Virus record (IMG/VR): IMGVR_UViG_3300045988_172914 | Span: 1-36,696 of that record | DNA: 36,696 nt | Origin: a virus | Reading direction: 5' to 3' (one strand) | Shown: positions 1 to 36,696 of the stretch, in pieces | Numbering within the stretch: position 1 is the first letter of the stretch | Layout of the letters: every line of letters begins with the position of its first letter | The notes under the pieces: generated by a model | Databases searched by the model: none | Told to the model about the DNA's origin: nothing | The model's input: only the letters and a program-made list of their open reading frames with translations | Translations under genes and position numbers: made by a program

Positions 1-51
1 TCTCGCTGGACGAAGTTACCGCAAAACAGCCCCTCTCGCTGGACGAAGTTA
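1..51. repeat. Terminal direct redundancy: nt 1-51 are identical to nt 36646-36696 (contig ends overlap -> circular/terminally redundant phage genome)
   Basis: Direct string comparison of first and last 51 nt of the window. Confidence 0.9.
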
Positions 52-63
52 CCGCCGCAATGA
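1..63 (+). CDS. 3' end of the repeat-protein gene that begins at 35290 (reads ...SRWTKLPQNSPSRWTKLPPQ then TGA at 61-63); in frame whether the 51-nt overlap is collapsed or not
   Basis: Frame continuity with ORF 35290..36696, which has no stop inside the window; stop codon tga at 61-63. Confidence 0.55.
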   Translation, partial: SRWTKLPQNSPSRWTKLPPQ

Positions 64-5552: not shown

Positions 5553-6377
5553 ATGGACGTTTATCAGAGAGTTCAAGAAGCGCAGGCTTACGCTGACCGG
5601 ACAAAGGCACGGGCGGAGCAAGAACGGCGGCTGGCCGATGACGCCAAAGGACAGTACGAGCGCAGTCTGAGGCTGGCGCCGGATATGACAACGCTGTACG
5701 AGCAATCGAAGGCTAAGTATCTAAATACGCCGGAGCTTGAGGCTGAACGCCGGGATGTGGAAAAAATGCGGGGATTGTCCGACAATGCCAAAACCGCTTT
5801 AGATAAGGTCAGTCAATCAATTAGATGGCAGTTTGCCGGCACGGGCATGAGCCAGGATAAAGCAGACGAGCTCGAAGAGGCACAGACTAAGGAATTGAGT
5901 TCTCAATTTAACACCTATCAGGCAAACTATCAGCAAGCGCAAACCGGCTACGAAAAACGTGTAGAAAAAGCATTCAACACGTCAATAGATGTTGCTAACA
6001 AAGATTACGATGTGGCGTGGCAGAAGATACGCAACAGGGCGAACGTCTGGTCTAGCTTGATTGATAGTAGTCGTTACTGGGGTGAAATGTCTTCCGGCGC
6101 ACAAACTCAGCTTTTCCAAGCACAGGCCGCCCGAGATGCTTGGGAATTGAGGCAGCGGGCTATGCGGCTAGAACGTGAGCTTCAGGAGATTGCTAACCGC
6201 AATGCCAGACGTGACGCTCAGCGGGCGATAGACGAGGTGATAGACAGACAGGGCGCCGGCATGATGTCAATGATGGACGACGCCCTTGGCTCGCTATTTG
6301 ACGCCCTCGCAGGGCGAGGCCGCTCTCGAGCGGTTGCTGGCGGTGGTGTTGGCGGCGGTGGTGGCGGTGACTGGTAG
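5553..6377 (+). CDS. Internal virion/ejection-type protein, 274 aa; coiled-coil with C-terminal GGGVGGGGGGDW tail; paralog of 6437..7375
   Basis: Shared blocks with the next ORF (TLYEQSKAKYLNT / TLYDEARAKYGNT; GTGMS / GTGMT; Gly-run + W at C-terminus). Confidence 0.5.
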   Translation: MDVYQRVQEAQAYADRTKARAEQERRLADDAKGQYERSLRLAPDMTTLYEQSKAKYLNTPELEAERRDVEKMRGLSDNAKTALDKVSQSIRWQFAGTGMSQDKADELEEAQTKELSSQFNTYQANYQQAQTGYEKRVEKAFNTSIDVANKDYDVAWQKIRNRANVWSSLIDSSRYWGEMSSGAQTQLFQAQAARDAWELRQRAMRLERELQEIANRNARRDAQRAIDEVIDRQGAGMMSMMDDALGSLFDALAGRGRSRAVAGGGVGGGGGGDW

Positions 6378-6436: not shown

Positions 6437-7375
6437 ATGTATGACTTTCCGAACCGAATAAACGAAGCAAAACGAGCCGTCGAGCGTAGTTACAACACTT
6501 ATAACAAGTACGAGGGCGACGCCGCTCAAGCTAAGCAGAGCCTGGATGCCAATATGGGGCAGACCAAGGACTATTCGACGCTATACGATGAGGCTCGAGC
6601 TAAATACGGCAATACTGACGAAATACAGAGGGCGTTTAATAGCTTAAAGAACGCTCGTGGCGTTGTTGATGAGCTAAATACAACAATATCCAAGATGCCC
6701 GAGTCAATTAGGCAACAGTATTCCGGCACCGGTATGACCGAAGCTCAAAGACAACGGGCGCTCGGAGCTCAAATAAACGCTCAGCAGCCTATCCTGCAAA
6801 ACGCCACCACCACCTATCAGAACGCCAGCAACGACTACAACAGCTTAATCGAGCGAGCCTTGAGAGAGGCGCAGCAGGTTGCCGGTGGAAACATGTCTTA
6901 CCAAACGAACACAACGAATAACCTGATGAACATCTGGTCGACCCTTCTCGGACAGCGCAATACTGCATATAACGAGAACCTGCAAGACCGAGGACTGTTG
7001 GCTAATCAATACGGCGCTAAGGATAAATGGGACTTAGCGCAACAGCAAGATGCGTTAGATAGGTGGAAAGCACAACAGGAGAACTACCGCGCTAAGTTAG
7101 CCGCTGATGCTCGAATAGAAGCAGCCAGAATAGGTAGTTACCTGCCTCAGCGTCAGCCCAGCAGAAGCAACAACGGCAAGCCTAAAAATAATAACATCTA
7201 CACACCAAGAGAACGTCAAGAGCCGATTTATGCTACCAAGGCTAATAATCTTTGGGATGCCATCAAGATGTATGGACCGCTAGCGGCACTTGGCGGTGGT
7301 ACGTTTTGGGCTAACAAGGGCATAGAGGATCGCTGGGGCGGTTCATCTGGCGGTAATGGCGGAGGGAGCTGGTAA
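6437..7375 (+). CDS. Internal virion/ejection-type protein, 312 aa; Q/N-rich; C-terminal GGSSGGNGGGSW tail; paralog of 5553..6377
   Basis: See paralogy above. Confidence 0.5.
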   Translation: MYDFPNRINEAKRAVERSYNTYNKYEGDAAQAKQSLDANMGQTKDYSTLYDEARAKYGNTDEIQRAFNSLKNARGVVDELNTTISKMPESIRQQYSGTGMTEAQRQRALGAQINAQQPILQNATTTYQNASNDYNSLIERALREAQQVAGGNMSYQTNTTNNLMNIWSTLLGQRNTAYNENLQDRGLLANQYGAKDKWDLAQQQDALDRWKAQQENYRAKLAADARIEAARIGSYLPQRQPSRSNNGKPKNNNIYTPRERQEPIYATKANNLWDAIKMYGPLAALGGGTFWANKGIEDRWGGSSGGNGGGSW

Positions 7376-10184: not shown

Positions 10185-11282
10185 ATGGCATTTTCCGAGA
10201 GGGTCACCTCCGTCACCTACGACAAGATTATTCCGAAAGTTGTTGATGGCGTTAACAACAGCAACATATTCACCGCTCGAACTGCGGCTATGGCGAAACG
10301 GTGGCACGGCGCATCGATTAAACAGCCGATCCGAATCGCTAACTCAACCTCCGGGGGGTCGTTTTCCGGCATGGACACTTTTAATGTGTCCCAGACCGAC
10401 AACACCCGGTCGATGACTTGGTATCCAAAGTCTTACGCCCAATCAGTCGTTGTGTCCGGTATTGAGCGGGCGGTAAACAGCGGATCGGACGCTCAAGCGA
10501 TCAGACTGCTTGGCAACTTGATGGACGAGGCAAAGACATCGATGGCTGAGGGCGTCGGTACAGCCTTGTACGGCGACGGCACCGGTAATTCAGGTAAGGA
10601 TTTTGACGGGCTGAAGTTAATCGTCGACGACGGCACCGGATCGGCCAGCTACGCAGGTTTGACCCGTGCCACTTATCCGGCCACCAAGGGCAACGTGATC
10701 GCAGCCACCGGCGGTACACTTTCTCTTGATCTGATCACGGGAGCCTTCGACGTGGCTAGCGCTGCCGGCTCGGGCCAAGAGTCGCCCAACATCATCTATA
10801 CCACCAAGGCGGCTTGGAGCTTGGTCGAGAAGCTGATGATCGCAGCTAGCGCTATTCAAGCGCAGTACACTGCAACTGCCATTCAGGGCTACAACCGAGT
10901 GAGTGGCAAGACTCCGACTGGGACTTCAGTATCAGCAAGCGAGATCAAGGGCGTGATCGGATTCAACGCCATTAACGTGCGTGGCATCCCGTGTGTCGCC
11001 GACGACAAGTGTCCAAGCGGCCACATGTACTTCCTGAACGAACACTATCTCGAGTTCGACTCGTTGCAAGATCCGGAACTGCGACAGGTTAAGTCGTCTC
11101 TCGAGGTTACAGACGGAGCCTACTCCGATAACTCCAGCCAGGTGCCATCGTTTATCCAGATGCGAGAGTTCCTGAAGCCTACTAATCAGTACGGCGAAAT
11201 CGGCGCCCTATTCGTCCTTGGCAATCTAATTTGTCGACAGCCTCGACGCAACTCTGTTATCACCGGCATAACTAAGGTATAA
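10185..11282 (+). CDS. Putative major capsid protein, 365 aa (T7-like/HK97-fold by size and N-terminal pattern)
   Basis: Last gene of the structural operon, own upstream AT-rich region, followed by a strong bidirectional terminator; size typical of an MCP. Confidence 0.5.
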   Translation: MAFSERVTSVTYDKIIPKVVDGVNNSNIFTARTAAMAKRWHGASIKQPIRIANSTSGGSFSGMDTFNVSQTDNTRSMTWYPKSYAQSVVVSGIERAVNSGSDAQAIRLLGNLMDEAKTSMAEGVGTALYGDGTGNSGKDFDGLKLIVDDGTGSASYAGLTRATYPATKGNVIAATGGTLSLDLITGAFDVASAAGSGQESPNIIYTTKAAWSLVEKLMIAASAIQAQYTATAIQGYNRVSGKTPTGTSVSASEIKGVIGFNAINVRGIPCVADDKCPSGHMYFLNEHYLEFDSLQDPELRQVKSSLEVTDGAYSDNSSQVPSFIQMREFLKPTNQYGEIGALFVLGNLICRQPRRNSVITGITKV

Positions 11283-21808: not shown

Positions 21809-22537
21809 TTATCTGAAATACTCGTAATCGGGCCTACCGATTAACACTTCATTGGCGTGGTGCTCGACGATTTTCAACGCAGCACGATATAGCGCCATTT
21901 TAGTCGTATGCTCGACGTGTCCGAACCAATCTGAGTCGACGTGCTCTAAAACCAAGTCGTCGTCATACAATCCTAACTGTCTCAGTACGGCGTCGACGAT
22001 GTCTCGAGCCAACTCCTCTTGAGCCTCGTGGTCTCTCGTAGCATGCCGCACTATATTGTCGAGGACTTGCTGCCGCTTATGATACATGATGTGGTTGTAG
22101 AATAAACATTTAAGCCCCTCGGCTATTCTCTCGTCACGGACAGTCTCGTAATCTTTATAAGACATCGACATAGGGTGGTAATAAGTCAGATAGAACACCA
22201 TGTCGATTATTTCAGGATTGTCGGTCACGAAATCCAGATGATTCCGCTTTAGCCATAACTTGTGAGCAATCTTACGCTTGTCGAGATGGTCTATCAGCTC
22301 ATTACAGAACTTGTACATGCAGCAATTGTTGCCAACGGCTCCGTATATAGCTTTGACGTCGCTATCTTTTAACATAAACTTTTCGATGATGTCCTCATCA
22401 CAAACATATCGTCGCTCTCTGTTTAGGTAGAAGCGAACGATGTTGCCTTCGATTCGAGCTTTCTGCTCACGATTGTGGTCGAGGTATGTGTCAATTCGCT
22501 CTGCCAGTTCGACGTTCTCGTTGATCTTGTTATCCAT
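21809..22537 (-). CDS. Hypothetical early protein, 242 aa (His-rich blocks; own promoter cassette and terminator)
   Basis: AGGAGG SD in the 44-bp cassette; terminator immediately downstream. Confidence 0.5.
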   Translation of the reverse strand: MDNKINENVELAERIDTYLDHNREQKARIEGNIVRFYLNRERRYVCDEDIIEKFMLKDSDVKAIYGAVGNNCCMYKFCNELIDHLDKRKIAHKLWLKRNHLDFVTDNPEIIDMVFYLTYYHPMSMSYKDYETVRDERIAEGLKCLFYNHIMYHKRQQVLDNIVRHATRDHEAQEELARDIVDAVLRQLGLYDDDLVLEHVDSDWFGHVEHTTKMALYRAALKIVEHHANEVLIGRPDYEYFR

Positions 22538-22580
22538 AATTACCTCCTACGTAATATTATGTTGACGCCATTATGGTAGC
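22537..22580. repeat. Copy 1 of a 44-bp exact repeat (taattacctcctacgtaatattatgttgacgccattatggtagc) carrying AGGAGG SD and leader for gene 22537
   Basis: Identical to 23661..23704. Confidence 0.85.
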
Positions 22581-23658: not shown

Positions 23659-24090
23659 TTTAATTACCTCCTACGTAATATTATGTTGACGCCATTATGG
23701 TAGCAAGATTAGACTTTGAAAGCAATAGATTCGTCTGGTCACAATGTAGTATTTTTACCACCAAACTGTGGAAAAGTCGCCCGTGCCAAGATCTGCCCCC
23801 TCTAGAAAGAAAAAGAAGCAAAAAGAAAGAAAAGAGAATATTCTATATAAAGAATATTCTATATATGAAAATAAAAACTTTAGAAGTTCTGCGCCCGAGC
23901 GTTACAGGCAAAAGCGGTTGCAAATAGTGAATTGACAAGCATAGGAGTTTATATTGCAGTAACGACATTTTCTCTATCTGTTGGAGCGTGATTCCACTGG
24001 TGTTGGAAAATAGAGTTTTCCACAGGCATGATGTAAATATTACACCATTAAAAACAGCACATTTTCGGAAAAATATGTTTATATAGGTGT
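23659..24090. promoter_or_regulatory. 430-bp divergent control region between the leftward early and rightward arms. It contains a candidate TTGCTA-N17-TAATAT leftward promoter, two motif sites (23766-23775, 24016-24025) and a 35-nt polypurine tract (23804-23838). It also holds a tandem palindromic 16-mer (23835-23866) and a near-palindrome (23998-24025), making it an origin and early-promoter candidate.
   Basis: Largest non-coding stretch, AT-rich, with repeats read directly. Confidence 0.55.
23661..23704. repeat. Copy 2 of the 44-bp exact repeat (SD/leader of gene 23658)
   Basis: Identical to 22537..22580. Confidence 0.85.
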
Positions 24091-24933: not shown

Positions 24934-25341
24934 ATGTACGACGATGATTTACACTTGTCTCGCAATCGAGCCGAACTGAGACGTAATCAACGAGCTCTGC
25001 TGGAGGAGATGTTGGAGATGACGGCTTTTGAGCTGTCGGCGATCGTTGATGATGACGAGGCGCCGTCTTTTCGGCGTGGTATGGCCAAAATGATCATGGC
25101 TTTTCAGGACAAGCACGAGCCGATGACCATGATCGGCATTTTAGACCAGATCTACGGCAAGCCAACTGAGCGAGTCGAAGTGAAACACTCCGAGATAATC
25201 GAAGGATTTGTAATTCCGACCCTATCGCAAGACGATATCCTGGCGCTTCAAAGTGGCGGTGGCGACAGTATCGGCGCGGTCGCTAATGATGAGGTTAACG
25301 GTAAAAATGACAACAAAGACGAAGTTGTGGACAAGCGATAG
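24934..25341 (+). CDS. Candidate terminase small subunit, 135 aa (by position only)
   Basis: Immediately upstream of and overlapping terL. Confidence 0.3.
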   Translation: MYDDDLHLSRNRAELRRNQRALLEEMLEMTAFELSAIVDDDEAPSFRRGMAKMIMAFQDKHEPMTMIGILDQIYGKPTERVEVKHSEIIEGFVIPTLSQDDILALQSGGGDSIGAVANDEVNGKNDNKDEVVDKR

Positions 25342-26896
25342 TGCAAAAGAGCTGACTGAATCAATGAAATCTTGGGCGCCCAACCCAGGTCCGCAGACAC
25401 TGGTTTTAGCGCTACTAATGTCCGGCGTATATCGGATTTTACTCTATGGTGGCGCTCGAGGCGGCGGAAAAACCGAGGCGTCTTTAATTAGTACGATCGA
25501 ACGAGTTAACAAAACGTTGTCAAAACAACTTATCATTCGAAAAAACGCTAAAGATTTACAAGATTACTGGCTGCGGTTGGAACAGCTGGGACAGGGTATT
25601 GAGGGTCTGAAATTTAGTCAATCGAAGTATACGGCAATCAGGCGCCTGCCGGGTGTCTTGTCTACGATATTTGGCGGACACCTCAAAGACGATCAGAGCT
25701 ACATGCAGTATCAGGGGCAACAGTTCGATCGCATCTGCATTGAGGAGTTAACTCAAATACCGACCGAACGTCGATTCAACATGCTTATATCAAGTTGTCG
25801 TTCAAGCAATAGGCTGCTCAAGCCTGTTGTGTTTTGTACAGCGAACCCCGGCGGCCCGGGTCATTCGTGGGTGAAGAGTCGGTTTGTCGAACCTGACTCA
25901 AAAATCTACGACACGACGAAAAAGAAGTATACCTACATTAATGGATCCGGCGAGGTTAAGGTAATTAACTGGCTGGACGTTGAGAATAAGTTTACAGGCG
26001 AGCGATCGGCATACATTCCTGCCACTGTTGACGATAATCCTGTCCTGCTCAAAAACGACCCCGAATATGTCAGAACGCTCGACTCGTTGGAGCAATCAGA
26101 TCCGGAATTGTATCGAGCCTGGAGGCACGGTGACTGGAATGTGGCTTTCGGAGCTGTTTTCGAGGAGTGGCGCAATGAATTGCACACCTTTAGTACTTTT
26201 GACAACATTACCAAGGACGACTTTGACAACGGCTACAAGCTAGCCGGCATGGACTGGGGATACAACGATGAGTGCGTTATGCTATGGGCTTTTCTCGACG
26301 AAGTGACCGAAAAACATTATCGTAATTACATTTACCGAGAGGTGCACGGCAATCATCAGCCGCCCTCTTATCACGCCAAGAAATTCGCCGAAATCCAGAA
26401 AATCGATCCTGTCTCGGTCTTTGCCATGCCGCACGACGCTTATTCGCACTTAGGCGGCTGGGACAAAATCGTTGATGTTTTTAAGGCGGAGACGGACAAA
26501 CTGCCGGTGGATAAGCGCCCAATGTATATCAGAGCTGATAAACTGTCGGTTGCGAAAAGACTCAACGCAATTGCTAACCTGCATCAGTTAATGCAGGTAT
26601 TCAGTGATGGTAGACCGTTGTTGAGGGTACACCGAAGTTGTGATTATACTATCAAAACACTACCAACCATTACGTACGCTGATGACAGCTTTGGCGAAAG
26701 AATTGCTAACAACTGCGCCGATCACGCCCTCGACGCCCTCTGTTATACCCTGATGGTCGGCTGGCAGATGGCCGGGTCGGTCACTTACAAGGATATTAGG
26801 TGTGAGCAAAAAAATAATTCCTATTACGAAGATGGCAACGGCGTGCCGGCTTCACTCATGCCTAATCTGGGGGATCTGGCCGCTCAGTCGTTGTAA
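25307..26896 (+). CDS. terL: Terminase large subunit, ~529 aa (track ORF starts at 25253)
   Basis: Walker A YGGARGGGKTEASL near the N-terminus; size; position before the portal. Confidence 0.85.
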   Translation: MTTKTKLWTSDSAKELTESMKSWAPNPGPQTLVLALLMSGVYRILLYGGARGGGKTEASLISTIERVNKTLSKQLIIRKNAKDLQDYWLRLEQLGQGIEGLKFSQSKYTAIRRLPGVLSTIFGGHLKDDQSYMQYQGQQFDRICIEELTQIPTERRFNMLISSCRSSNRLLKPVVFCTANPGGPGHSWVKSRFVEPDSKIYDTTKKKYTYINGSGEVKVINWLDVENKFTGERSAYIPATVDDNPVLLKNDPEYVRTLDSLEQSDPELYRAWRHGDWNVAFGAVFEEWRNELHTFSTFDNITKDDFDNGYKLAGMDWGYNDECVMLWAFLDEVTEKHYRNYIYREVHGNHQPPSYHAKKFAEIQKIDPVSVFAMPHDAYSHLGGWDKIVDVFKAETDKLPVDKRPMYIRADKLSVAKRLNAIANLHQLMQVFSDGRPLLRVHRSCDYTIKTLPTITYADDSFGERIANNCADHALDALCYTLMVGWQMAGSVTYKDIRCEQKNNSYYEDGNGVPASLMPNLGDLAAQSL

Positions 26897-26915
26897 TTTG
26901 GGCTATAATCTTAAT

Positions 26916-29024
26916 ATGAACTATTACGACGAAACTGAAACCGAGCAACAGGCCATTGCTGAGAGTGCCGGCAACACTACCGACGAGCCGACGCTTGACC
27001 TAAATCTGGAGGACGGTGGCGAAACTTTAATTGCGAAGTTGGAGCTGATGATATCTCACTCTAGAGCTCAATGGGAGCGAGCCGACGTCGATAGCTTTAA
27101 CTTGACGTCGCAACGAGCTCTTAACAACCGGTACTATAGAGGGGAGCAGTCGGGCGCAATGGCGGGGCTGTACAACTCCGATTATGTCGACAACGAGCTG
27201 TTCATTGGTGTACAGTCAATAATCGCCTACGTTACATCTTCTACTCCGTCCTGCGAAATAGCGCCGATGGACAGCGAAACGCCGTCTGAGGTGATGGCTG
27301 AGCAGCTGGAGTTAGCAATATCCAGTCATTCAGAAAAATGGCGATTGCGTAAACTGCTTAAGGTAGCGGTTCGTAATATGTATATCAACAAGGTAGGTGT
27401 CTTGAAACTGAGCTACGACCCAAGCCTCAACGACATCAAGCCAACTGCAGTCGATCCCAACAGACTCATTCTCGACTACAACTGTCGTCAACTTGACAAC
27501 CCCCGCGTTATCTGCGAGGTGTGTGACTGTCGCCGTAGCGAGCTGATACGCCGCTTTCCGAAGAAGCGAGCCGAAATTGAACAAAGAATTGGTTCAGGTG
27601 GAATTGTTCACTATAAAGAAGTTTGGTACACCGATGATAACGGCGATGAGTGCGTTGCCTGGTACTACGGCGGATTATTGCTTGATGCGATAAAAAATCC
27701 GAACTTTCTATACGACGGCGAGGGTTTGAATGTTGTGAATGTTGCTGATCGTCCGCCAAAACCGTACGTATTCTTCAATTACATCAACGACGGCAACCAT
27801 CTGATCGACTACACCACGCCGCTAGAGCAAGCGATCCCGCTGCAGGACGACCTCAATCGCCGAGGACGACAAATCACCGACAACACCGATACTGCTAACA
27901 GCATCCTGGCTGTCAACGCCAGGGCTGTTACCGACGAGATGGACAAGCGCATACAGAGGCGAGCCCCTAACACAGTCATCAGATTGAACCATATTGACGA
28001 TGGCGTGCCTATCGGGAACTTAATCACAGAGATACCGCCGCATACTTTGCCCAACTACGTGGTTAACGATCGCCAAGACTTAAGGCGGGCAATTCATGAT
28101 GTTTTGGGAACGCCCAGTCAATTTAGGGGTAGCGATAGTGATAAGGCCAACACGTTGGGCGAAGCTCAAATGCTGAAGAGCCAAGCTAGCGGACGTCAGG
28201 ACGAGGTCGTTCAGGCTGTAGAAGACGGAATGTCGGACTATTTCAAGTTGTTAGTTCAAATGATGAAAGTGTATTTCAACGACGATACTAAATATGTCGC
28301 AAAAGACAATGACGGCAAATTTGTTCGAATTGAGCTAAACCGCACCACCATCCCCGATGTGGCCTCGATTGCCGTCGAAAGTGGATCTACCCTGAAACAC
28401 GACAAGCGTCGCCGTGAAGAAGTGGCAGTCAGCATGGCTAAGATGGGGTTGATTGACCCGTATAACTTCTATCGTGATCTGGACTTAAAGGACGCCGACA
28501 AGCGCTACGAGACGTTGGTGAAGTTCAAGGCCGACCCAATGAGCTTGGTTGACGACGTCAAGAGTGAGGTGGCAGACAGGAATGCCTATGTCGACTTTGC
28601 CGTGCTCATCGGAGGCGGCGACGCTAAGCCACGCCCCGATATCCAACCGAGCTACATCCTGGGTATGCGTAAACTTTTGATGTCCGATCAATTCTTGCTG
28701 GCGAGCAAGGAGCGACAAGCCAAGGTGCTGGATTACGTGAGGGGTTGTGTATTAGACATTAGTAACCGGGCTAAGTTGGATACTGACGACAAGCAGGGGC
28801 TACTAGTTGATCCTAATATTCCCATTACTCCCGAGCCACCCGAGCCAGAACCGGAACAACCGAGCCAACAGCCAAGTATCCAGGACGGGGTGCAGCCGGG
28901 AATGCTAGACCGATTGGGACAAGCGTTGTCAAACCAACAACAAGCTAATGGGGTGGGTGACTTGCCAATGCCCCAGAACGTCGGTGTGGAAGGAATGGGG
29001 CTAGGCAATGAGCAAACTGAGTGA
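26916..29024 (+). CDS. Portal protein, ~702 aa (alt GTG start 26802)
   Basis: Large ORF directly after terL; acidic Pro/Glu-rich C-terminus. Confidence 0.6.
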   Translation: MNYYDETETEQQAIAESAGNTTDEPTLDLNLEDGGETLIAKLELMISHSRAQWERADVDSFNLTSQRALNNRYYRGEQSGAMAGLYNSDYVDNELFIGVQSIIAYVTSSTPSCEIAPMDSETPSEVMAEQLELAISSHSEKWRLRKLLKVAVRNMYINKVGVLKLSYDPSLNDIKPTAVDPNRLILDYNCRQLDNPRVICEVCDCRRSELIRRFPKKRAEIEQRIGSGGIVHYKEVWYTDDNGDECVAWYYGGLLLDAIKNPNFLYDGEGLNVVNVADRPPKPYVFFNYINDGNHLIDYTTPLEQAIPLQDDLNRRGRQITDNTDTANSILAVNARAVTDEMDKRIQRRAPNTVIRLNHIDDGVPIGNLITEIPPHTLPNYVVNDRQDLRRAIHDVLGTPSQFRGSDSDKANTLGEAQMLKSQASGRQDEVVQAVEDGMSDYFKLLVQMMKVYFNDDTKYVAKDNDGKFVRIELNRTTIPDVASIAVESGSTLKHDKRRREEVAVSMAKMGLIDPYNFYRDLDLKDADKRYETLVKFKADPMSLVDDVKSEVADRNAYVDFAVLIGGGDAKPRPDIQPSYILGMRKLLMSDQFLLASKERQAKVLDYVRGCVLDISNRAKLDTDDKQGLLVDPNIPITPEPPEPEPEQPSQQPSIQDGVQPGMLDRLGQALSNQQQANGVGDLPMPQNVGVEGMGLGNEQTE

Positions 29025-30462
29025 TATTTTTAAGAAACTTCTCGATGGTGGCCAATTTACCGAGTGGGCTGACGATATTATCAAGCGTGTCTCTAATAAT
29101 TACACTGACGACGCCGTGAGAGCCGCTGCTAAGTCCAAGGATGCTTTAGTCGGCGTACATCGTACGTTTTCGTCTAAACTCGCCAATGCCGCCGATCTGG
29201 GCGGATTTCCGGCGATGTCCGTCGGCATCTATAATCCGGCGAAGAACAGGATATCGAAGGAGCTTGGAGATCGATTCGGCGACGTAACGCTGTTGATGAA
29301 CGCTGATAAAATCAGGCCGGAGAGCAGTTCAGCTTTTGTTGGTAATCGGGATATTTGGAGCCCAAGGGTGTACGAATATGCCGTTCCAACGCTAAATAGC
29401 GACGACGAGATAGCCCGGCTACTAAAGCGCCGTCCATCTTTAACTAAACGAGGAATAACGGTCGACGACGTTAAACACATAGCTCGACATTTCACGCCCA
29501 GTCAAGACGCCGTCCCCGAGCAGATACTGTCTGACTTGAACGACATATATCAGAAGTTTAATCCGGGTGGAGTTGTAAAGGATAACTTTGTGAGCAAGAC
29601 TGCGACACCGGCCCTTATAAACAATCCATACGCCGGATACAAGAAGCTAAACGACTTTATTGAGAACTTGGAGTGGATCGGTACATCTAAAAACGGCATC
29701 ACGCTCAACGGCGAAGTCGTACCTCGCAACGTCGTCAATGTGAACAAATCCTCGTACAGCGACGGCAAGGGTGGGCTACTGAATGTTATTGGCGGTGGCA
29801 AGGACATCAAGAACGGCGACAAGGCGCATTGGTTGGGGACGGCCAAGCGGTTTACCAACACCGACGACATGTATAAGAGTCGCAATCTGCTGACCACCCG
29901 TGATGACTATGGCGTAACACGGTCGCTACTCGGCAACGCCAGGGGGCGTGTCCTAGCCGGACAACCAGAGCTGAGTGAGCATGGAAGCAGGACGTTTTTC
30001 GAGCTCGGCAAAGACGATTTCGCCTCGGCGGATAACCTACTCAAGAGAGCCATCGCCAGTGGCGACCCGGCGAAAATACAGCGATTTGTACCCGGCGTTA
30101 AGAGTAGCGATATAGCAGACCTTAGGCAGGCTTATCTCAACGCCCCTACTGCCTACTTTGAGTCAAAACAATTAGAACCTATTTACGGGACTGATATAGC
30201 TGAAGCTTTTGTGCCGAAAACGCCGAGACACGCCGACAGGTATGGCTACGACACGCCGCTTTCAGCCGAAGAAACCGCCGCTCGGCTTAAGCACATGGGG
30301 GTGAACAAAATTACTCAGTACGACACTTTTGACGAGTTAGACAACTTGCTTGCAGATCGGGCTAGAGTGCGGAATAGGGCGCTGCCGTACATTCTTGGGC
30401 TGGGCGGGGTCAGCGCACTGCCGGCGTTTTTGAGCGGCTACAATAACCAATCTGAAGTCTAA
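29008..30462 (+). CDS. Post-portal minor head/morphogenesis protein, 484 aa (MuF-like by position)
   Basis: Position between portal and scaffold. Confidence 0.4.
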   Translation: MSKLSDIFKKLLDGGQFTEWADDIIKRVSNNYTDDAVRAAAKSKDALVGVHRTFSSKLANAADLGGFPAMSVGIYNPAKNRISKELGDRFGDVTLLMNADKIRPESSSAFVGNRDIWSPRVYEYAVPTLNSDDEIARLLKRRPSLTKRGITVDDVKHIARHFTPSQDAVPEQILSDLNDIYQKFNPGGVVKDNFVSKTATPALINNPYAGYKKLNDFIENLEWIGTSKNGITLNGEVVPRNVVNVNKSSYSDGKGGLLNVIGGGKDIKNGDKAHWLGTAKRFTNTDDMYKSRNLLTTRDDYGVTRSLLGNARGRVLAGQPELSEHGSRTFFELGKDDFASADNLLKRAIASGDPAKIQRFVPGVKSSDIADLRQAYLNAPTAYFESKQLEPIYGTDIAEAFVPKTPRHADRYGYDTPLSAEETAARLKHMGVNKITQYDTFDELDNLLADRARVRNRALPYILGLGGVSALPAFLSGYNNQSEV

Positions 30463-32372: not shown

Positions 32373-33416
32373 ATGTATACGCTATCTAGGTGGATATCCC
32401 CCAATTACACAAATGGTCGGTCGGGACGCAATATCGAAAAGATAGTACTGCACCACGCTGCTACAACTAGTTTTGTAGGAATTGGGGCAACTTTCCAAAA
32501 TCGGTCGCTTGGAGTTAGCGCTCATTTTGGCGTTGCTCCCGGGCAAGTCTGTCAATACGTCGATATCAACGACACAGCCTGGCATTGCGGCAACTGGGAC
32601 ATGAATTGCAAGACTATCGGCATTGAGCATGTCAACAGCACCGGGGCGCCGGAATGGCAGATAGCCGATGAGACAATCAAGACCAGCGCAGAATTGCTAA
32701 CCAACCTAGCTCGTCGGCTGGGTTGGAGCAGCCTGCGTTACGGGCAAAACGTCATCTATCACGACGACGTCGTAAAAACATATTGCCCGGGCATGATTCG
32801 ACGGGCGAATGCCGGTTCGAGGATAATTGACCTGGCTAATCAAATGCTGTCGGGTGGCAGCGTCACGGACGTGCGAAGACAAGAGTATACTCCACCAAAA
32901 CTAGCCGGTCAGCACCCTGACGGATTGTGGCTCTATCACGATTATGTCGGTAACTGGCGCAGCGCTCCGTCCCGGAACGGTGCCGTAATGGCTACCTATC
33001 CGACCGGGACTTGGGTTAAAATGGCCGGGTACGTCCATGGCGAGAAAATTGATGGAGACGACCGATGGCTAGTGTCGAGCCGAAGCCACTGGTATGCTCA
33101 CGTATCCATTTTTGGCGACGTGTATGGATTGCCCGGGTTGGATAGCCAGCCTTCCAGCCGTGCTCAAACCGCAGAGAGCGGATTGGTCGCGCAGCAGGGC
33201 ACATATAAGGCGACCGATAAAATGAACATTCGTCGGTCACCCAGCCTCGACGGAGAGGTGGTGGCAACGCTAAACCCCGGTGAGTCAGTGCAATATGACG
33301 GCTATGTCGATACTAACGGCTATCGTTGGATTAGCTATATCGGATATTCGGGCAAGCGCAACTATATAGCACGTCGTAATTTTAACAACGGAGATATTTA
33401 CGGAATTTGTTCGTAA
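32373..33416 (+). CDS. Endolysin: N-acetylmuramoyl-L-alanine amidase (Amidase_2/PGRP) with C-terminal SH3b cell-wall-binding domain, 347 aa
   Basis: Zn ligands IVLHHAAT ... IGIEHV ... YHDDVVKTYCPGM; C-terminal GYRWISYIG SH3b-like block. Confidence 0.85.
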   Translation: MYTLSRWISPNYTNGRSGRNIEKIVLHHAATTSFVGIGATFQNRSLGVSAHFGVAPGQVCQYVDINDTAWHCGNWDMNCKTIGIEHVNSTGAPEWQIADETIKTSAELLTNLARRLGWSSLRYGQNVIYHDDVVKTYCPGMIRRANAGSRIIDLANQMLSGGSVTDVRRQEYTPPKLAGQHPDGLWLYHDYVGNWRSAPSRNGAVMATYPTGTWVKMAGYVHGEKIDGDDRWLVSSRSHWYAHVSIFGDVYGLPGLDSQPSSRAQTAESGLVAQQGTYKATDKMNIRRSPSLDGEVVATLNPGESVQYDGYVDTNGYRWISYIGYSGKRNYIARRNFNNGDIYGICS

Positions 33417-35052: not shown

Positions 35053-35235
35053 CTAGGTACATAATCCATTTTGGTATCCGACGGGCAAGAACACCAATAT
35101 ATGTGCGTGGTTGTTTATTAGTTAACGTTTGTTGCCTATCTGGACACTAAATGCCCGTTGGAGCCTTTCATCGCTGTCGCCGCCCACTCTTTTTCCTGCA
35201 AAAGTCGACCTCACGCAGGTTTTTGGTGACAGCTG

Positions 35236-35268
35236 GAGGGAGCCAGAGAGCCCCCTCTTTTTGTTTTT
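35236..35268 (+). terminator. Rho-independent terminator (GAGGGAGC-cagaga-GCCCCCTC + TTTTTGTTTTT)
   Basis: Hairpin plus T-tract. Confidence 0.7.
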
Positions 35269-35289
35269 AAGCTACAATAAAACGTAACT

Positions 35290-36696
35290 ATGGCTATATT
35301 TTGGACTGATTTTAAGGACGAAACAGACGGGGCTCCCGACAAGACTTCGTTCAACAACTGGGAGAGAGTGGTACAGAGCGGCGGCACAAGGGTGGCTGTA
35401 TTCAATGACGGTACTTCGTCTAACGAGCGTTGTCTTCAGATTGAGCAGAATCCAAGCGCTCAAGTCTTTGTTCGGTGTAAAGCCCTGCCCGCAGAAAATA
35501 GCGGCACCGTCGAGCTGTACACAAAATTCCGCTCCTGGGTGGTGACGAGTCAAAATCCTGGTAGCTTCGGCATTTTCTGCATGAGATACACCGCCCAATC
35601 CCCGGGCGTATCTCTAGCGCTAATTCCTGCATACAACAGGCTGTCTCTATTCCTAAATGACGACGCTCGCAACGAGGGCATCGCTTACTACTGGTTTAAT
35701 TGGGCAAACGGCGAGCAGCTCCACTGTCGCTGTCGCAATGAAGGCAATCGTTACTTGGCCAAGATTTGGAGGGTCGGCGAGGCTGAACCGCCGGGATGGC
35801 AGATCGACGCTCTGCGAAGAGGCGAGCCCGGTTGGGGATATTACGGAGTGGGTAATTATTCTCGAGCATGGACTAAGTTCTATTTGTTCGGCATAGGGAC
35901 TGACGGCAGCGAGGCTCCAAAAACCGACCCGAGCCGACAAGTCATTACCTCTTTCGATGGCAACTTTGCGATTTGTCGAGACAGCAGCTCTAGTATCGGC
36001 GGCAATTTTGCCGTCGGACGAACGAGTCGGCTCGCACTACCCGGACGGTTCGCTGTGACACGCACCGAGTACGCTTCCCTCCTAGGGTCGTTTGCGATGT
36101 CGACAGAGAAGCGCTCTGGCGTCGTCGGCCGTTTCGCTGTGAGCCGAAAGAGGTATGGCAGCGTACCCGGTAGGTTTTCTGTTGCAAAAATGCAATCTGC
36201 GAAGATATCGGGGCGGTTTGCGGTTGCAAAGTCGCAGCACGTCGGGTTATCGGGCAATTTTGCGGTCAAGAGAGCTGTTTTGCCGGGAGAGCACCACGCC
36301 GGGCTAGTCGGCCGTTTCGCTGTGAGCCGAAAGAGGTATGGCAAGATACAAGGCGAGTTTACTATCGGTCGACGCAATACATCAAACGCAAAGGGGGTAT
36401 TTACTGTCGCTGTGGCCGACAAATCGTCGATATCCGGGGTGTTCACTATTTCGAGGAGCGCCATAGCTAATATTGCGGGCAATTTTGCAGTCGGTAAAGG
36501 CGGAAAATCCGACCTGGTCGGACAGTTTGTCGTCGGAGCTGTCGAGAGTTCTTCGGTGGGCGGCCGCTTTGCCATCTCAAGACAAAGTCGGTCGTCGATG
36601 GTTGGCAGATTCAGAGTGGTGTTGCCTAACAATGGGCTGTACCCCTCTCGCTGGACGAAGTTACCGCAAAACAGCCCCTCTCGCTGGACGAAGTTA
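35290..36696 (+). CDS. Repeat protein, 469 codons to the window edge, continuing into nt 1-63. It has a ~215-aa non-repetitive N-terminal domain and sixteen 14-residue G-(R/N)-F-A-V-x-(R/K) repeats. The C-terminus carries a tandem PSRWTKLPQNS x2.
   Basis: Hand translation of frame 1 with no stop to the end of the window. Strict 42-nt periodicity and two identical 37-bp internal DNA segments at 36123 and 36306. The gene follows a strong terminator and has its own 235-nt upstream region. Confidence 0.7.
   Translation, partial: MAIFWTDFKDETDGAPDKTSFNNWERVVQSGGTRVAVFNDGTSSNERCLQIEQNPSAQVFVRCKALPAENSGTVELYTKFRSWVVTSQNPGSFGIFCMRYTAQSPGVSLALIPAYNRLSLFLNDDARNEGIAYYWFNWANGEQLHCRCRNEGNRYLAKIWRVGEAEPPGWQIDALRRGEPGWGYYGVGNYSRAWTKFYLFGIGTDGSEAPKTDPSRQVITSFDGNFAICRDSSSSIGGNFAVGRTSRLALPGRFAVTRTEYASLLGSFAMSTEKRSGVVGRFAVSRKRYGSVPGRFSVAKMQSAKISGRFAVAKSQHVGLSGNFAVKRAVLPGEHHAGLVGRFAVSRKRYGKIQGEFTIGRRNTSNAKGVFTVAVADKSSISGVFTISRSAIANIAGNFAVGKGGKSDLVGQFVVGAVESSSVGGRFAISRQSRSSMVGRFRVVLPNNGLYPSRWTKLPQNSPSRWTKL
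36643..36696 (+). repeat. Tandem 33-bp coding repeat (cccctctcgctggacgaagttaccgcaaaacag) x ~1.6 at the contig edge, continued at nt 1-51
   Basis: Read directly. Confidence 0.85.

Follow-up and report, generated by a model that had tools for sequence, protein, structure and literature searches.

The 36,696-nucleotide (nt) viral sequence IMGVR_UViG_3300045988_172914, called the window below and analysed over its whole length, carries across the junction of its two ends a gene for a protein of 472 amino acids (aa) which is built from three parts: an N-terminal domain predicted to be a concanavalin A (ConA)-like lectin or carbohydrate-binding module (CBM), an array of sixteen 14-residue beta-strand units, and a short C-terminal tail of tryptophan-bearing repeats (Table 1). 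It is proposed that this protein is displayed on the virion of a short-tailed phage of ~36.6 kb as a carbohydrate-binding adhesion fibre anchored by its C-terminus, a reading for which the chances of being right or wrong are judged to be about equal. An anchor on the tail or neck is preferred over one on the capsid and takes the larger part of this confidence, the placement being in itself tentative. Adhesion fibres are a known kind of phage protein, and what would be new here is the build from two sequence families that have so far not been curated.

Reading frame 1 is open from the ATG at 35290 to base 36696 (469 codons) and closes at a TGA at 61-63 past the junction, as had been claimed in an earlier note on this DNA made from its letters. 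The ends share an exact overlap of 51 nt (36646-36696 being identical to 1-51), and the window represents a circular, or circularly permuted, phage genome of 36,645 bp. Trimming of this overlap gives the 472-aa product with two PSRWTKLP units and the stop codon at 61-63. A second suffix-prefix overlap of 18 nt is present because of the internal 33-nt repeat; its trimming would give 483 aa with three PSRWTKLP units, and wrapping the ends untrimmed would give 489 aa, duplicating sequence and breaking the register of the repeats. An independent European Nucleotide Archive (ENA) contig, ERZ27262785 k119_130515 (L140), measures 36,764 bp (36,645 + 119) and holds an identical 472-aa gene (P0197) in its interior. 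A 7,419-nt stretch of it occurs letter for letter in the circle trimmed by 51 nt but not in the one trimmed by 18 nt, which rules out the 18-nt trim, and two copies of the 11-aa unit are therefore correct. The tandem 33-nt repeat described earlier at the C-terminus is a genuine direct repeat, and the suggestion that its copy number could not be resolved at assembly is contradicted by this k=119 contig, which spans the repeat with exactly two copies. Four more contigs of close relatives, linearised at different points, have the gene internally as well, which brings to five the independent contigs with the intact gene.

The substitution pattern among relatives marks the gene as real and under purifying selection. 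The close-relative proteins, of which 21 were examined at cluster level, include six homologues at 84-93% identity, all of which begin with MAIFWTDF as the target does. Compared across four genomes in the plus frame, third codon positions show substitutions about twice as frequently, and the ratio of nonsynonymous to synonymous substitution rates (dN/dS) is 0.12-0.28 for the N-terminal domain and 0.33-0.51 for the array, against 0.03 for the adaptor gene and 0.10 for a 669-aa tail gene; the protein evolves faster than the core tail genes (0.12-0.51 vs 0.03-0.10). The program-made list of open reading frames (ORFs) lacks the gene and shows an antisense ORF of 250 aa instead, as the earlier note had observed. 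Only close relatives keep that ORF open, over 237-286 aa, whereas no antisense ORF longer than 87 aa is found in the L007 and L011 homologues of a lineage at 31% identity, which, together with the third-position bias and the dN/dS below 1 in the plus frame, bears out its description as a shadow. The lesson for annotation is that a gene of 472 codons went unlisted only because a circular genome had been cut inside it.

The strongest functional clue, overlooked in the earlier note, is the N-terminal domain of 216 aa. Given an alignment of 60 sequences, AlphaFold2 (AF2) models it, with predicted local distance difference test (pLDDT) values of 80-95, as a curved two-sheet beta-sandwich with a jelly-roll topology and ~200 residues, the fold of the ConA-like lectin/glucanase superfamily; with 7 sequences the pLDDT was 33 and the model unusable. 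On this modelling evidence residues 1-216 are assigned to the ConA-like lectin/CBM sandwiches. The first beta-strand starts at residue 3, and the target shares with 55 family representatives a lectin-type domain that begins at residue 1-3; its starting MAIFWTDF forms the first strand and does not resemble a signal peptide. The family profile matches CBM66 by sequence (E=2.6e-4), and structural neighbours in BFVD include uncharacterised "Podoviridae sp." proteins and minor tail proteins of actinophages.

An exhaustive hidden Markov model (HMM) search detected 195 relatives (E<=1e-3); the distant ones were reached in this way only, a word-indexed protein search with the family alignments giving almost nothing. 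Among the 155 proteins that were compared (the 150 listed matches of the search plus the close relatives), the domain recurs in 103 as a discrete unit of ~210 aa, either single at the N-terminus or in 2-6 tandem copies in giant proteins. The target's family shares the conserved motif K-[IV]-W-x-D-G-x-x-E-P-x-x-W, and its form with [KR] at the first position retrieves more than 120 loci from GTDB genomes, with 107 of 120 confirmed by the HMM. The bacterial hosts of the domain are large multi-domain proteins, e.g. a GH141-like beta-helix protein and an M14 peptidase, so that it occurs as an accessory module of secreted glycosidase- and peptidase-type proteins, which counts in favour of an adhesin. 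In these proteins (GTDB loci L017-L136), the region is likewise without Pfam coverage, and on sequence grounds the family is a candidate for a new CBM-like family. Examples of bacterial carriers are Paenibacillus sp. CF384 (L038) and Sporosarcina sp. (L096). In a metagenome-assembled genome of Candidatus Levyibacteriota (L081), a CPR bacterium, a 520-aa ORF at 1148 joins the domain to an 18-aa repeat (...SDSGSxxEALSxLxxx...); the domain is thus found with several unrelated short-repeat stalks, of 14, 18, 22, and 28 aa.

Residues 224-450 are made up of sixteen beta-strand units of 14 aa, the number and the basic character given in the earlier note being borne out. Their consensus is G-[RN]-F-A-[VI]-[SGA]-[RK]-x3-[SAG]-[SG]-[ILV]-x, with the glycine at position 1 and the phenylalanine at position 3 invariant in 16/16 units and hydrophobic residues at positions 3, 5, and 13. 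The units start at residues 224 to 439 and are spaced by 14 aa apart from a single unit of 19 aa. The isoelectric point (pI) of the array is 11.8, with 35 K+R vs 9 D+E. Two identical 37-bp segments reported within it do exist, and are likewise identical in L001 and L004; their coordinates had been given one base off and are corrected in Table 1. Tandem Repeats Finder reported no tandem array in the DNA, since the 42-nt units are old and have diverged at that level. As had been suspected, the repeat lies outside described families: searches of Pfam (E<=1), PHROGs, and NCBIfam gave no family for the protein or its array, the PHROGs scan returning two chance-level matches (E 0.06 and 0.11), neither of them to a tail family, and PDB profile searches of the array gave chance matches only (nanobody, She3, SBDHga1). 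A DUF4097/LiaG-type beta-solenoid was considered and rejected, the target having no match and the relative P0035 alone reaching 25.8 bits vs a cut-off of 285. A related 14-aa array is found in 75 of the 155 proteins (e.g. QTGKFRVRKTxDxx and LLGEFxVRHxxSxD), being basic in phage-type relatives and acidic in some others.

In the last 22 residues of the protein, a tryptophan recurs every 11 residues. Tails with a tryptophan every 10-11 residues, with 3-6 tryptophans and often with the ending W-x-x-x-Y-Y-D, occur in at least 12 divergent family representatives. Choline-binding or cell-wall-binding repeats of ~20 residues (CW_binding_1) were also considered; there is no Pfam match to them, and the unit here has 11 residues with a single tryptophan.

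Copy-number variation had been predicted from the repeats, and the comparison of relatives finds whole-unit changes in both repeat types. All length differences among the close relatives amount to whole units, with 15-16 units of 14 aa and 1-3 units of 11 aa. Unit 4 is absent in P0002, P0003, and P0004/L002, P0005 lacks one unit other than unit 4, unit 1 is tandemly duplicated in L002, and the 11-aa unit is present in one, two or three copies, giving protein lengths of 458, 461, 472, and 483 aa. The C-terminal tails of two other lineages vary likewise (397 vs 376 aa and 513 vs 491 aa). No relative has the 183-nt change that would be expected from recombination between the exact 37-nt copies, which were therefore rejected as the driver of these insertions and deletions. 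Gains and losses of single units at several positions suggest that one unit of 14 aa corresponds to one structural layer. The natural variants constitute a ready series for structure-function work.

The case for host recognition comes mainly from the locus. The window is a genome of the short-tailed-phage type, in which the target forms a trio with two upstream partner genes, and this trio is found at 20-31% identity in four lineages, i.e. those of the window, L007, L137/138, and L139. The first partner (172-175 aa) keeps 37-49% identity between these four otherwise very divergent lineages, a 50-kb farmland phage among them; neither partner family had a match in PHROGs or the PDB, and the first is also without a Pfam relative. 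In L137 and L139, the trio is flanked by the capsid gene block on one side and the SU10-type adaptor gene on the other, with no gap between genes (capsid gene, 174-aa gene, 147-150-aa gene, family member, SU10_adaptor gene); this makes a structural operon. The L007 lineage has the block from adaptor to capsid inverted relative to the window, and the trio moves with the upstream operon. The identification of the adaptor rests on PF24175 (SU10_adaptor), which is matched by the genes of L001, L002, and L140, and on 34% identity to CQ476_44 of L003.

The latter, TM7 phage DolZOral124_53_65 (MG269973.1, L003), is the nearest annotated phage, with a capsid protein 57% identical and with terminase, portal, adaptor, and eight tail genes collinear with the window at 27-50% identity. 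HMM searches of this genome did not find the target or either partner gene; in place of the trio it has Polysacc_deac_1, Mtd_N plus pectate-lyase-like, Mtd_N, and Beta_helix genes, a typical tailspike/fibre set. This exchange is the main argument for the trio as a host-recognition module, and in accordance with it, the receptor-binding position that the earlier note ascribed to the gene coincides with the slot for host recognition in the nearest annotated phage. PDB sequence searches of three other large tail proteins (669, 626, and 464 aa), made to look for alternative receptor-binding candidates, gave no match.

With its collinear virion module and its genome of 36,645 bp, the phage agrees in core proteome and size (~35 kb) with the clade of predicted Saccharibacteria (TM7) phages, to which it is assigned, the host being predicted by relatedness only. 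The sample labelled ZHAN15-1_SAMEA2737886, which we take to belong to a human metagenome cohort, yielded a near-identical relative. A survey of the oral virome (OVD) lists 344 viral operational taxonomic units of predicted Saccharibacteria phages with an average length of 35.5 kb (PMC9160773). A scan of GTDB genomes found no close relative, and when 50,697 phage records were searched by tblastn with the target and with three of its relatives, a single partial match was obtained, that of a 22-aa-repeat relative in Microcystis phage Mae-JY22.

In the model favoured here, the Trp-repeat tail would anchor the protein near the head-tail junction, possibly via the 172-aa and 146-aa partners, and the basic array would form a rigid, beta-rich stalk in which each 14-aa unit makes one layer, which is the proposed reason why gains and losses of single units are tolerated. 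The distal lectin-like domain would bind a glycan of the cell surface or matrix in a first, reversible step of adsorption, and recombination between units would alter the length of the stalk and the valency of the tail. For the docking step, phage SU10 offers a precedent, with three tryptophans (Trp839, Trp847, and Trp857) set 8-10 residues apart in the "fiber dock loop" of its nozzle, which docks a trimeric fibre (PMC9509320); by analogy, a docking role of the Trp repeats may be taken as a lead.

A more far-reaching reading joins five claims, and it is unlikely that all of them hold together. According to it, the G-x-F-x-V unit would represent a new class of fibrous beta-fold, beta-roll- or solenoid-like and possibly oligomeric; the fold would be widespread in uncultivated phages and giant surface proteins without a solved or curated relative; it would be combined with an uncatalogued CBM-like domain and a "Trp-ladder" (a tryptophan every 10-11 residues, in 1-6 copies); the ladder would plug one chain into a symmetric partner on the virion, much like the SU10 dock loop; and recombination of whole units would tune both the reach of the adhesin and the valency of its anchoring. 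If so, the adhesin would let Saccharibacteria phages find their epibiont hosts in dental plaque, with a fructan or wall glycan perhaps as the ligand.

Several observations weigh against a virion-borne adhesion fibre. The members of the family are known from genes alone, and apart from the one partial match the family was not found among the cultured phage records searched. In tail fibres of the T7 and SU10 types, the polarity is opposite to that of a protein with a globular N-terminus and a C-terminal anchor. The adaptor gene of SU10 is directly preceded by that of gp10, a putative minor capsid or head-fibre-like protein (PMC9509320), and the position of the present gene would, by analogy, be equivalent to that of gp10 and not to that of a tail fibre. 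The ConA-like fold also includes PL7, GH16, and GH131 enzymes, making a catalytic role possible, and the target of the short Trp-rich repeats could be cell-wall polymers instead of the virion. As with accessory "moron" genes, there is a terminator ahead of the gene in both the window lineage and the L007 lineage. Lastly, AF2 with 60 sequences renders the array as all-beta with a pLDDT of only 26-60, so that the word stalk stands for an inference; the low confidence of this monomer model is compatible with an obligate oligomer and is no proof of one.

The alternative which survives best, unlikely as it appears but to be taken seriously, is that the protein decorates the capsid or forms a head fibre in the manner of Hoc or phi29 gp8.5. 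Its tail would then bind capsomers with the lectin domain projecting from the head, and it would promote adherence to glycans of plaque or mucosa rather than serve as the receptor binder of infection; from the explanation favoured above this reading differs only in the site of the anchor and in dispensability. A globular lectin domain that starts at residue 1, with the only candidate anchor at the C-terminus, suits such a protein, as do the gp10-like position that L137 and L139 give it between capsid block and adaptor, an array under relaxed constraint and with a freely varying unit number, and the gene of the L007 lineage, which abuts the capsid gene. What tells against it is the exchange of the block in L003 for Mtd_N-bearing tailspike/fibre genes, which argues for equivalence with tail-borne receptor binders, and the analogy with gp10 is limited in that the SU10 protein is immunoglobulin (Ig)-like, not ConA-like, and was not seen on the capsid (PMC9509320).

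It is improbable that the gene is instead a "moron"-like accessory outside the virion, transcribed from its own promoter, whose secreted or wall-associated product binds or cleaves glycans and acts either in superinfection exclusion, by blocking the receptor, or in lysis and release, by attacking polysaccharide of the wall or matrix. Against it, the N-terminus does not look like a signal peptide, and the structural genes from capsid to adaptor enclose the gene without gaps in L137 and L139, far from any lysis gene; for it speak the upstream terminator with a separate -10-like box in two lineages and the location just after the endolysin-holin cassette in the window. The enzymatic kin of the fold and the occurrence of the domain in secreted bacterial enzymes would fit an accessory role, yet the two partner genes are conserved across lineages in the manner of core virion genes, and the block is exchanged for tailspikes in L003.

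A shade less probable still is a classical trimeric tail fibre that is docked by its N-terminus, with the repeats as the shaft and the C-terminus as the receptor-binding tip. The repetitive, shaft-like region and the adjoining adaptor gene of the window would be expected of such a fibre, and Trp-rich C-terminal repeats could bind wall polymers. The adaptor block, however, is inverted and not adjacent in the L007 lineage, no tail-fibre family of Pfam or PHROGs was matched, and the tail of 22 residues is too short for a receptor-binding tip domain. Residues 1-216 form a complete globular domain without a docking segment like that of SU10 gp12 or T7 gp17, and with a lectin-type domain beginning at residue 1-3 and a repeat peptide at the other end, a fibre docked in the manner of those two was rejected. 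That the contig ends were wrongly joined, or that the long minus-strand ORF is the real gene, is hardly credible even with the contig cut lying within a tandem repeat, being refuted by the five contigs, the exact k119_130515 match, the plus-frame substitution pattern, the closed antisense frame of the L007 lineage, and an architecture common to distant homologues.

Table 1. Features of the window around the 472-aa gene and in the virion and lysis modules (coordinates are positions in the window)
Feature	Coordinates	Strand	Remarks
CDS, codons 1-469 of the 472-aa protein	35290..36696	+	from translation; continues at 52-63 once the 51-nt overlap is removed
CDS, end	1..63	+	bases 1-51 duplicate 36646-36696; 52-60 encode PPQ; TGA at 61-63
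Predicted N-terminal ConA-like lectin/CBM beta-sandwich, residues 1-216	35290..35937	+
Array of sixteen 14-aa units, residues 224-450	35959..36639	+	from unit table and position counts
Irregular 19-aa unit, residues 322-340, GNFAVKRAVLPGEHHAGLV	36253..36309	+	kept in all close relatives
Exact 37-nt duplication, copy 1 (unit 5, GRFAVSRKRYG)	36124..36160	+
Exact 37-nt duplication, copy 2 (unit 9)	36307..36343	+
Trp-repeat tail, PSRWTKLPQNS then PSRWTKL	36643..36696	+	ends with PPQ at 52-60; Trp every 11 residues
Antisense 250-aa shadow ORF, no gene	35880..36632	-	in the ORF list; open in close relatives only
Intrinsic-terminator-like hairpin (GGAGGGaGC/GCcCCCTC(T)) + T5GT5	35235..35268	+	21 nt before the ATG
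-10-like TACAAT	35273..35278	+	11 nt before the ATG; segment invariant in relatives
Partner gene 1, 172 aa	34097..34615	+	two genes upstream of the family member
Partner gene 2, 146 aa	34612..35052	+	directly upstream; homologues of 147-161 aa in the same place in L007, L137, L139
SU10-type head-to-tail adaptor, 296 aa	101..991	+	37 nt past the target stop
Major capsid gene	10185-11282		after the adaptor and eight tail-region genes
Large terminase	25253-26896
Portal	26802-29024		SU10_portal, faint match
Amidase_2+SH3_5 endolysin	32373-33416		followed by a Dp1-type holin, three small ORFs, and the target

Upstream of the gene, the earlier note had described a strong terminator and a leader of 235 nt belonging to the gene itself. 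The hairpin and its T-run are present; the leader is not supported, since the hairpin occupies the 3' end of that stretch, 21 nt ahead of the ATG, and the spacer rather resembles the terminal part of the transcription unit upstream. The hairpin was found by folding, its z-score alone being weak and a consensus terminator scan not having called it, and its stem shows compensatory changes in L001, L002, and L004 (GGGAGC/GCcCCC, GGGGAC/GTCCCC, and GGGGGG/CCCCCC); in the L007 lineage, too, a terminator of this kind stands ~25 nt ahead of the ATG. The target has no Shine-Dalgarno sequence, many window genes having AGGAGG, and several other genes of the window have TATAAT 5-12 nt before the ATG. Likely, then, the upstream unit terminates here and a near-leaderless transcript of the target starts, with TACAAT as its putative promoter. 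In the genes starting at 101, 3006, 5553, 6437, and 35290 (plus strand) and 11881 (minus strand), a TATAAT-like box 0-12 nt ahead of the ATG stands in place of a Shine-Dalgarno sequence, and the genome may mix leaderless with canonical translation starts. The ~180 nt from the stop of the 146-aa gene to the terminator (35053-35234) are nearly invariant in four relatives, above the level of the flanking coding DNA, and could be a small RNA derived from a 3' untranslated region or a regulatory leader; the 237-nt spacer matched no Rfam family and could not be aligned to the L007 lineage or L003.

Elsewhere in the genome, the gene order is unusual in that the capsid gene (10185-11282; 11239-12330 in L007) lies at the far end of the tail block, away from terminase and portal. 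A 484-aa protein encoded after the portal (29008-30462) has a PBECR5 domain (Barnase-EndoU-ColicinE5/D-RelE-like nuclease) at residues 42-121 (E=1e-7) and has no counterpart in L003. Two adjacent paralogues (5553-6377 and 6437-7375), both assigned to phrog_37153 and ~25% identical, are kept as a pair in L003 and the L007 lineage. An exact direct repeat of 44 nt (22537-22580 and 23661-23704) begins each of two minus-strand early genes (starts at 22537 and 23658) and includes a shared upstream ...caacataatattacgtaggaggtaatt... with a Shine-Dalgarno sequence; it looks like a duplicated cassette of early promoter and ribosome-binding site.

Among known systems, CBM66, the C-terminal module of the Bacillus subtilis levanase SacC (PDB 4B1L, 4B1M, and 4AZZ), is one of the closest to the N-terminal domain, with 15% identity; the phage domain differs from it in its larger size (216 aa), its N-terminal position, its own K-[IV]-W-x-D-G-x-x-E-P-x-x-W motif, and in that no Pfam model covers it. 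ConA-like domains have been described in phages as the C-terminal receptor-binding domain of TM4 gp23 (9N6A), in the baseplate upper protein gp23 of Douge (8ZDO), and as CBM2 of the Dit of Lactobacillus phage J-1 (5LY8). These domains are C-terminal or inserted and belong to tail proteins of siphophages, whereas that of the target is N-terminal, and the proteins carrying them have no 14-aa array, no Trp-repeat tail, and no detectable sequence similarity to it. At the same locus, TM7 phage MG269973 has a polysaccharide deacetylase, two pectate-lyase-like beta-helix proteins, and an Mtd_N fibre protein.

For the array, two known fibrous folds invite comparison. The YadA-type head repeats of trimeric autotransporter adhesins (TAAs) form a left-handed parallel beta-roll with a period of 14 residues. 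The target shares with them this period, a phi-A-phi-[G/S] core (here F-A-V-[S/G/A]), a small residue at position 11, and the tolerance of single-unit insertions and deletions, as if one unit made one coil; it differs in its invariant G1 and F3 and in its strongly basic charge. A YadA-like head repeat was rejected, since there was no match to Hep_Hag or another Pfam family (E<=1) and no TAA among the PDB profile matches (E<=10). The triple beta-spiral that forms the shaft of adenovirus and reovirus fibres has a repeat of ~15 residues. It is likewise a short periodic all-beta repeat with a conserved glycine and alternating hydrophobic residues, and it belongs to viral attachment proteins; the target, in contrast, has a period of 14 rather than 15, a single hydrophobic position (13) in the second half of the unit, and no sequence match in the PDB.

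With SU10, the phage shares the type of portal and adaptor. Its Trp spacing of 11 residues (1-3 units in the tails of the target and its close relatives, 3-6 in divergent ones) compares with 8-10 residues in the SU10 dock loop; unlike in SU10, the number of tryptophans is variable and not fixed at three, there is no sequence similarity, and gp10, a putative surface-decoration protein, has an Ig-like build. Known tail-fibre and tailspike families were rejected, with no Pfam match at E<=1, no PHROGs tail family, and no tblastn match in the 50,697 phage records. The protein brings together two uncurated families: a ConA-like module of ~210 aa, present at more than 100 bacterial loci and in many phage proteins, and a 14-aa beta repeat that at least 75 of the 155 proteins carry. 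Pfam, PHROG, NCBIfam, and PDB have a representative of neither. In the human mouth, predicted Saccharibacteria phages belong to the most prevalent phages, none is in culture, and no host-recognition protein of theirs is known (PMC9160773, PMC10746230); set against this background, the gene is a concrete and testable adhesin candidate of one common oral phage lineage.

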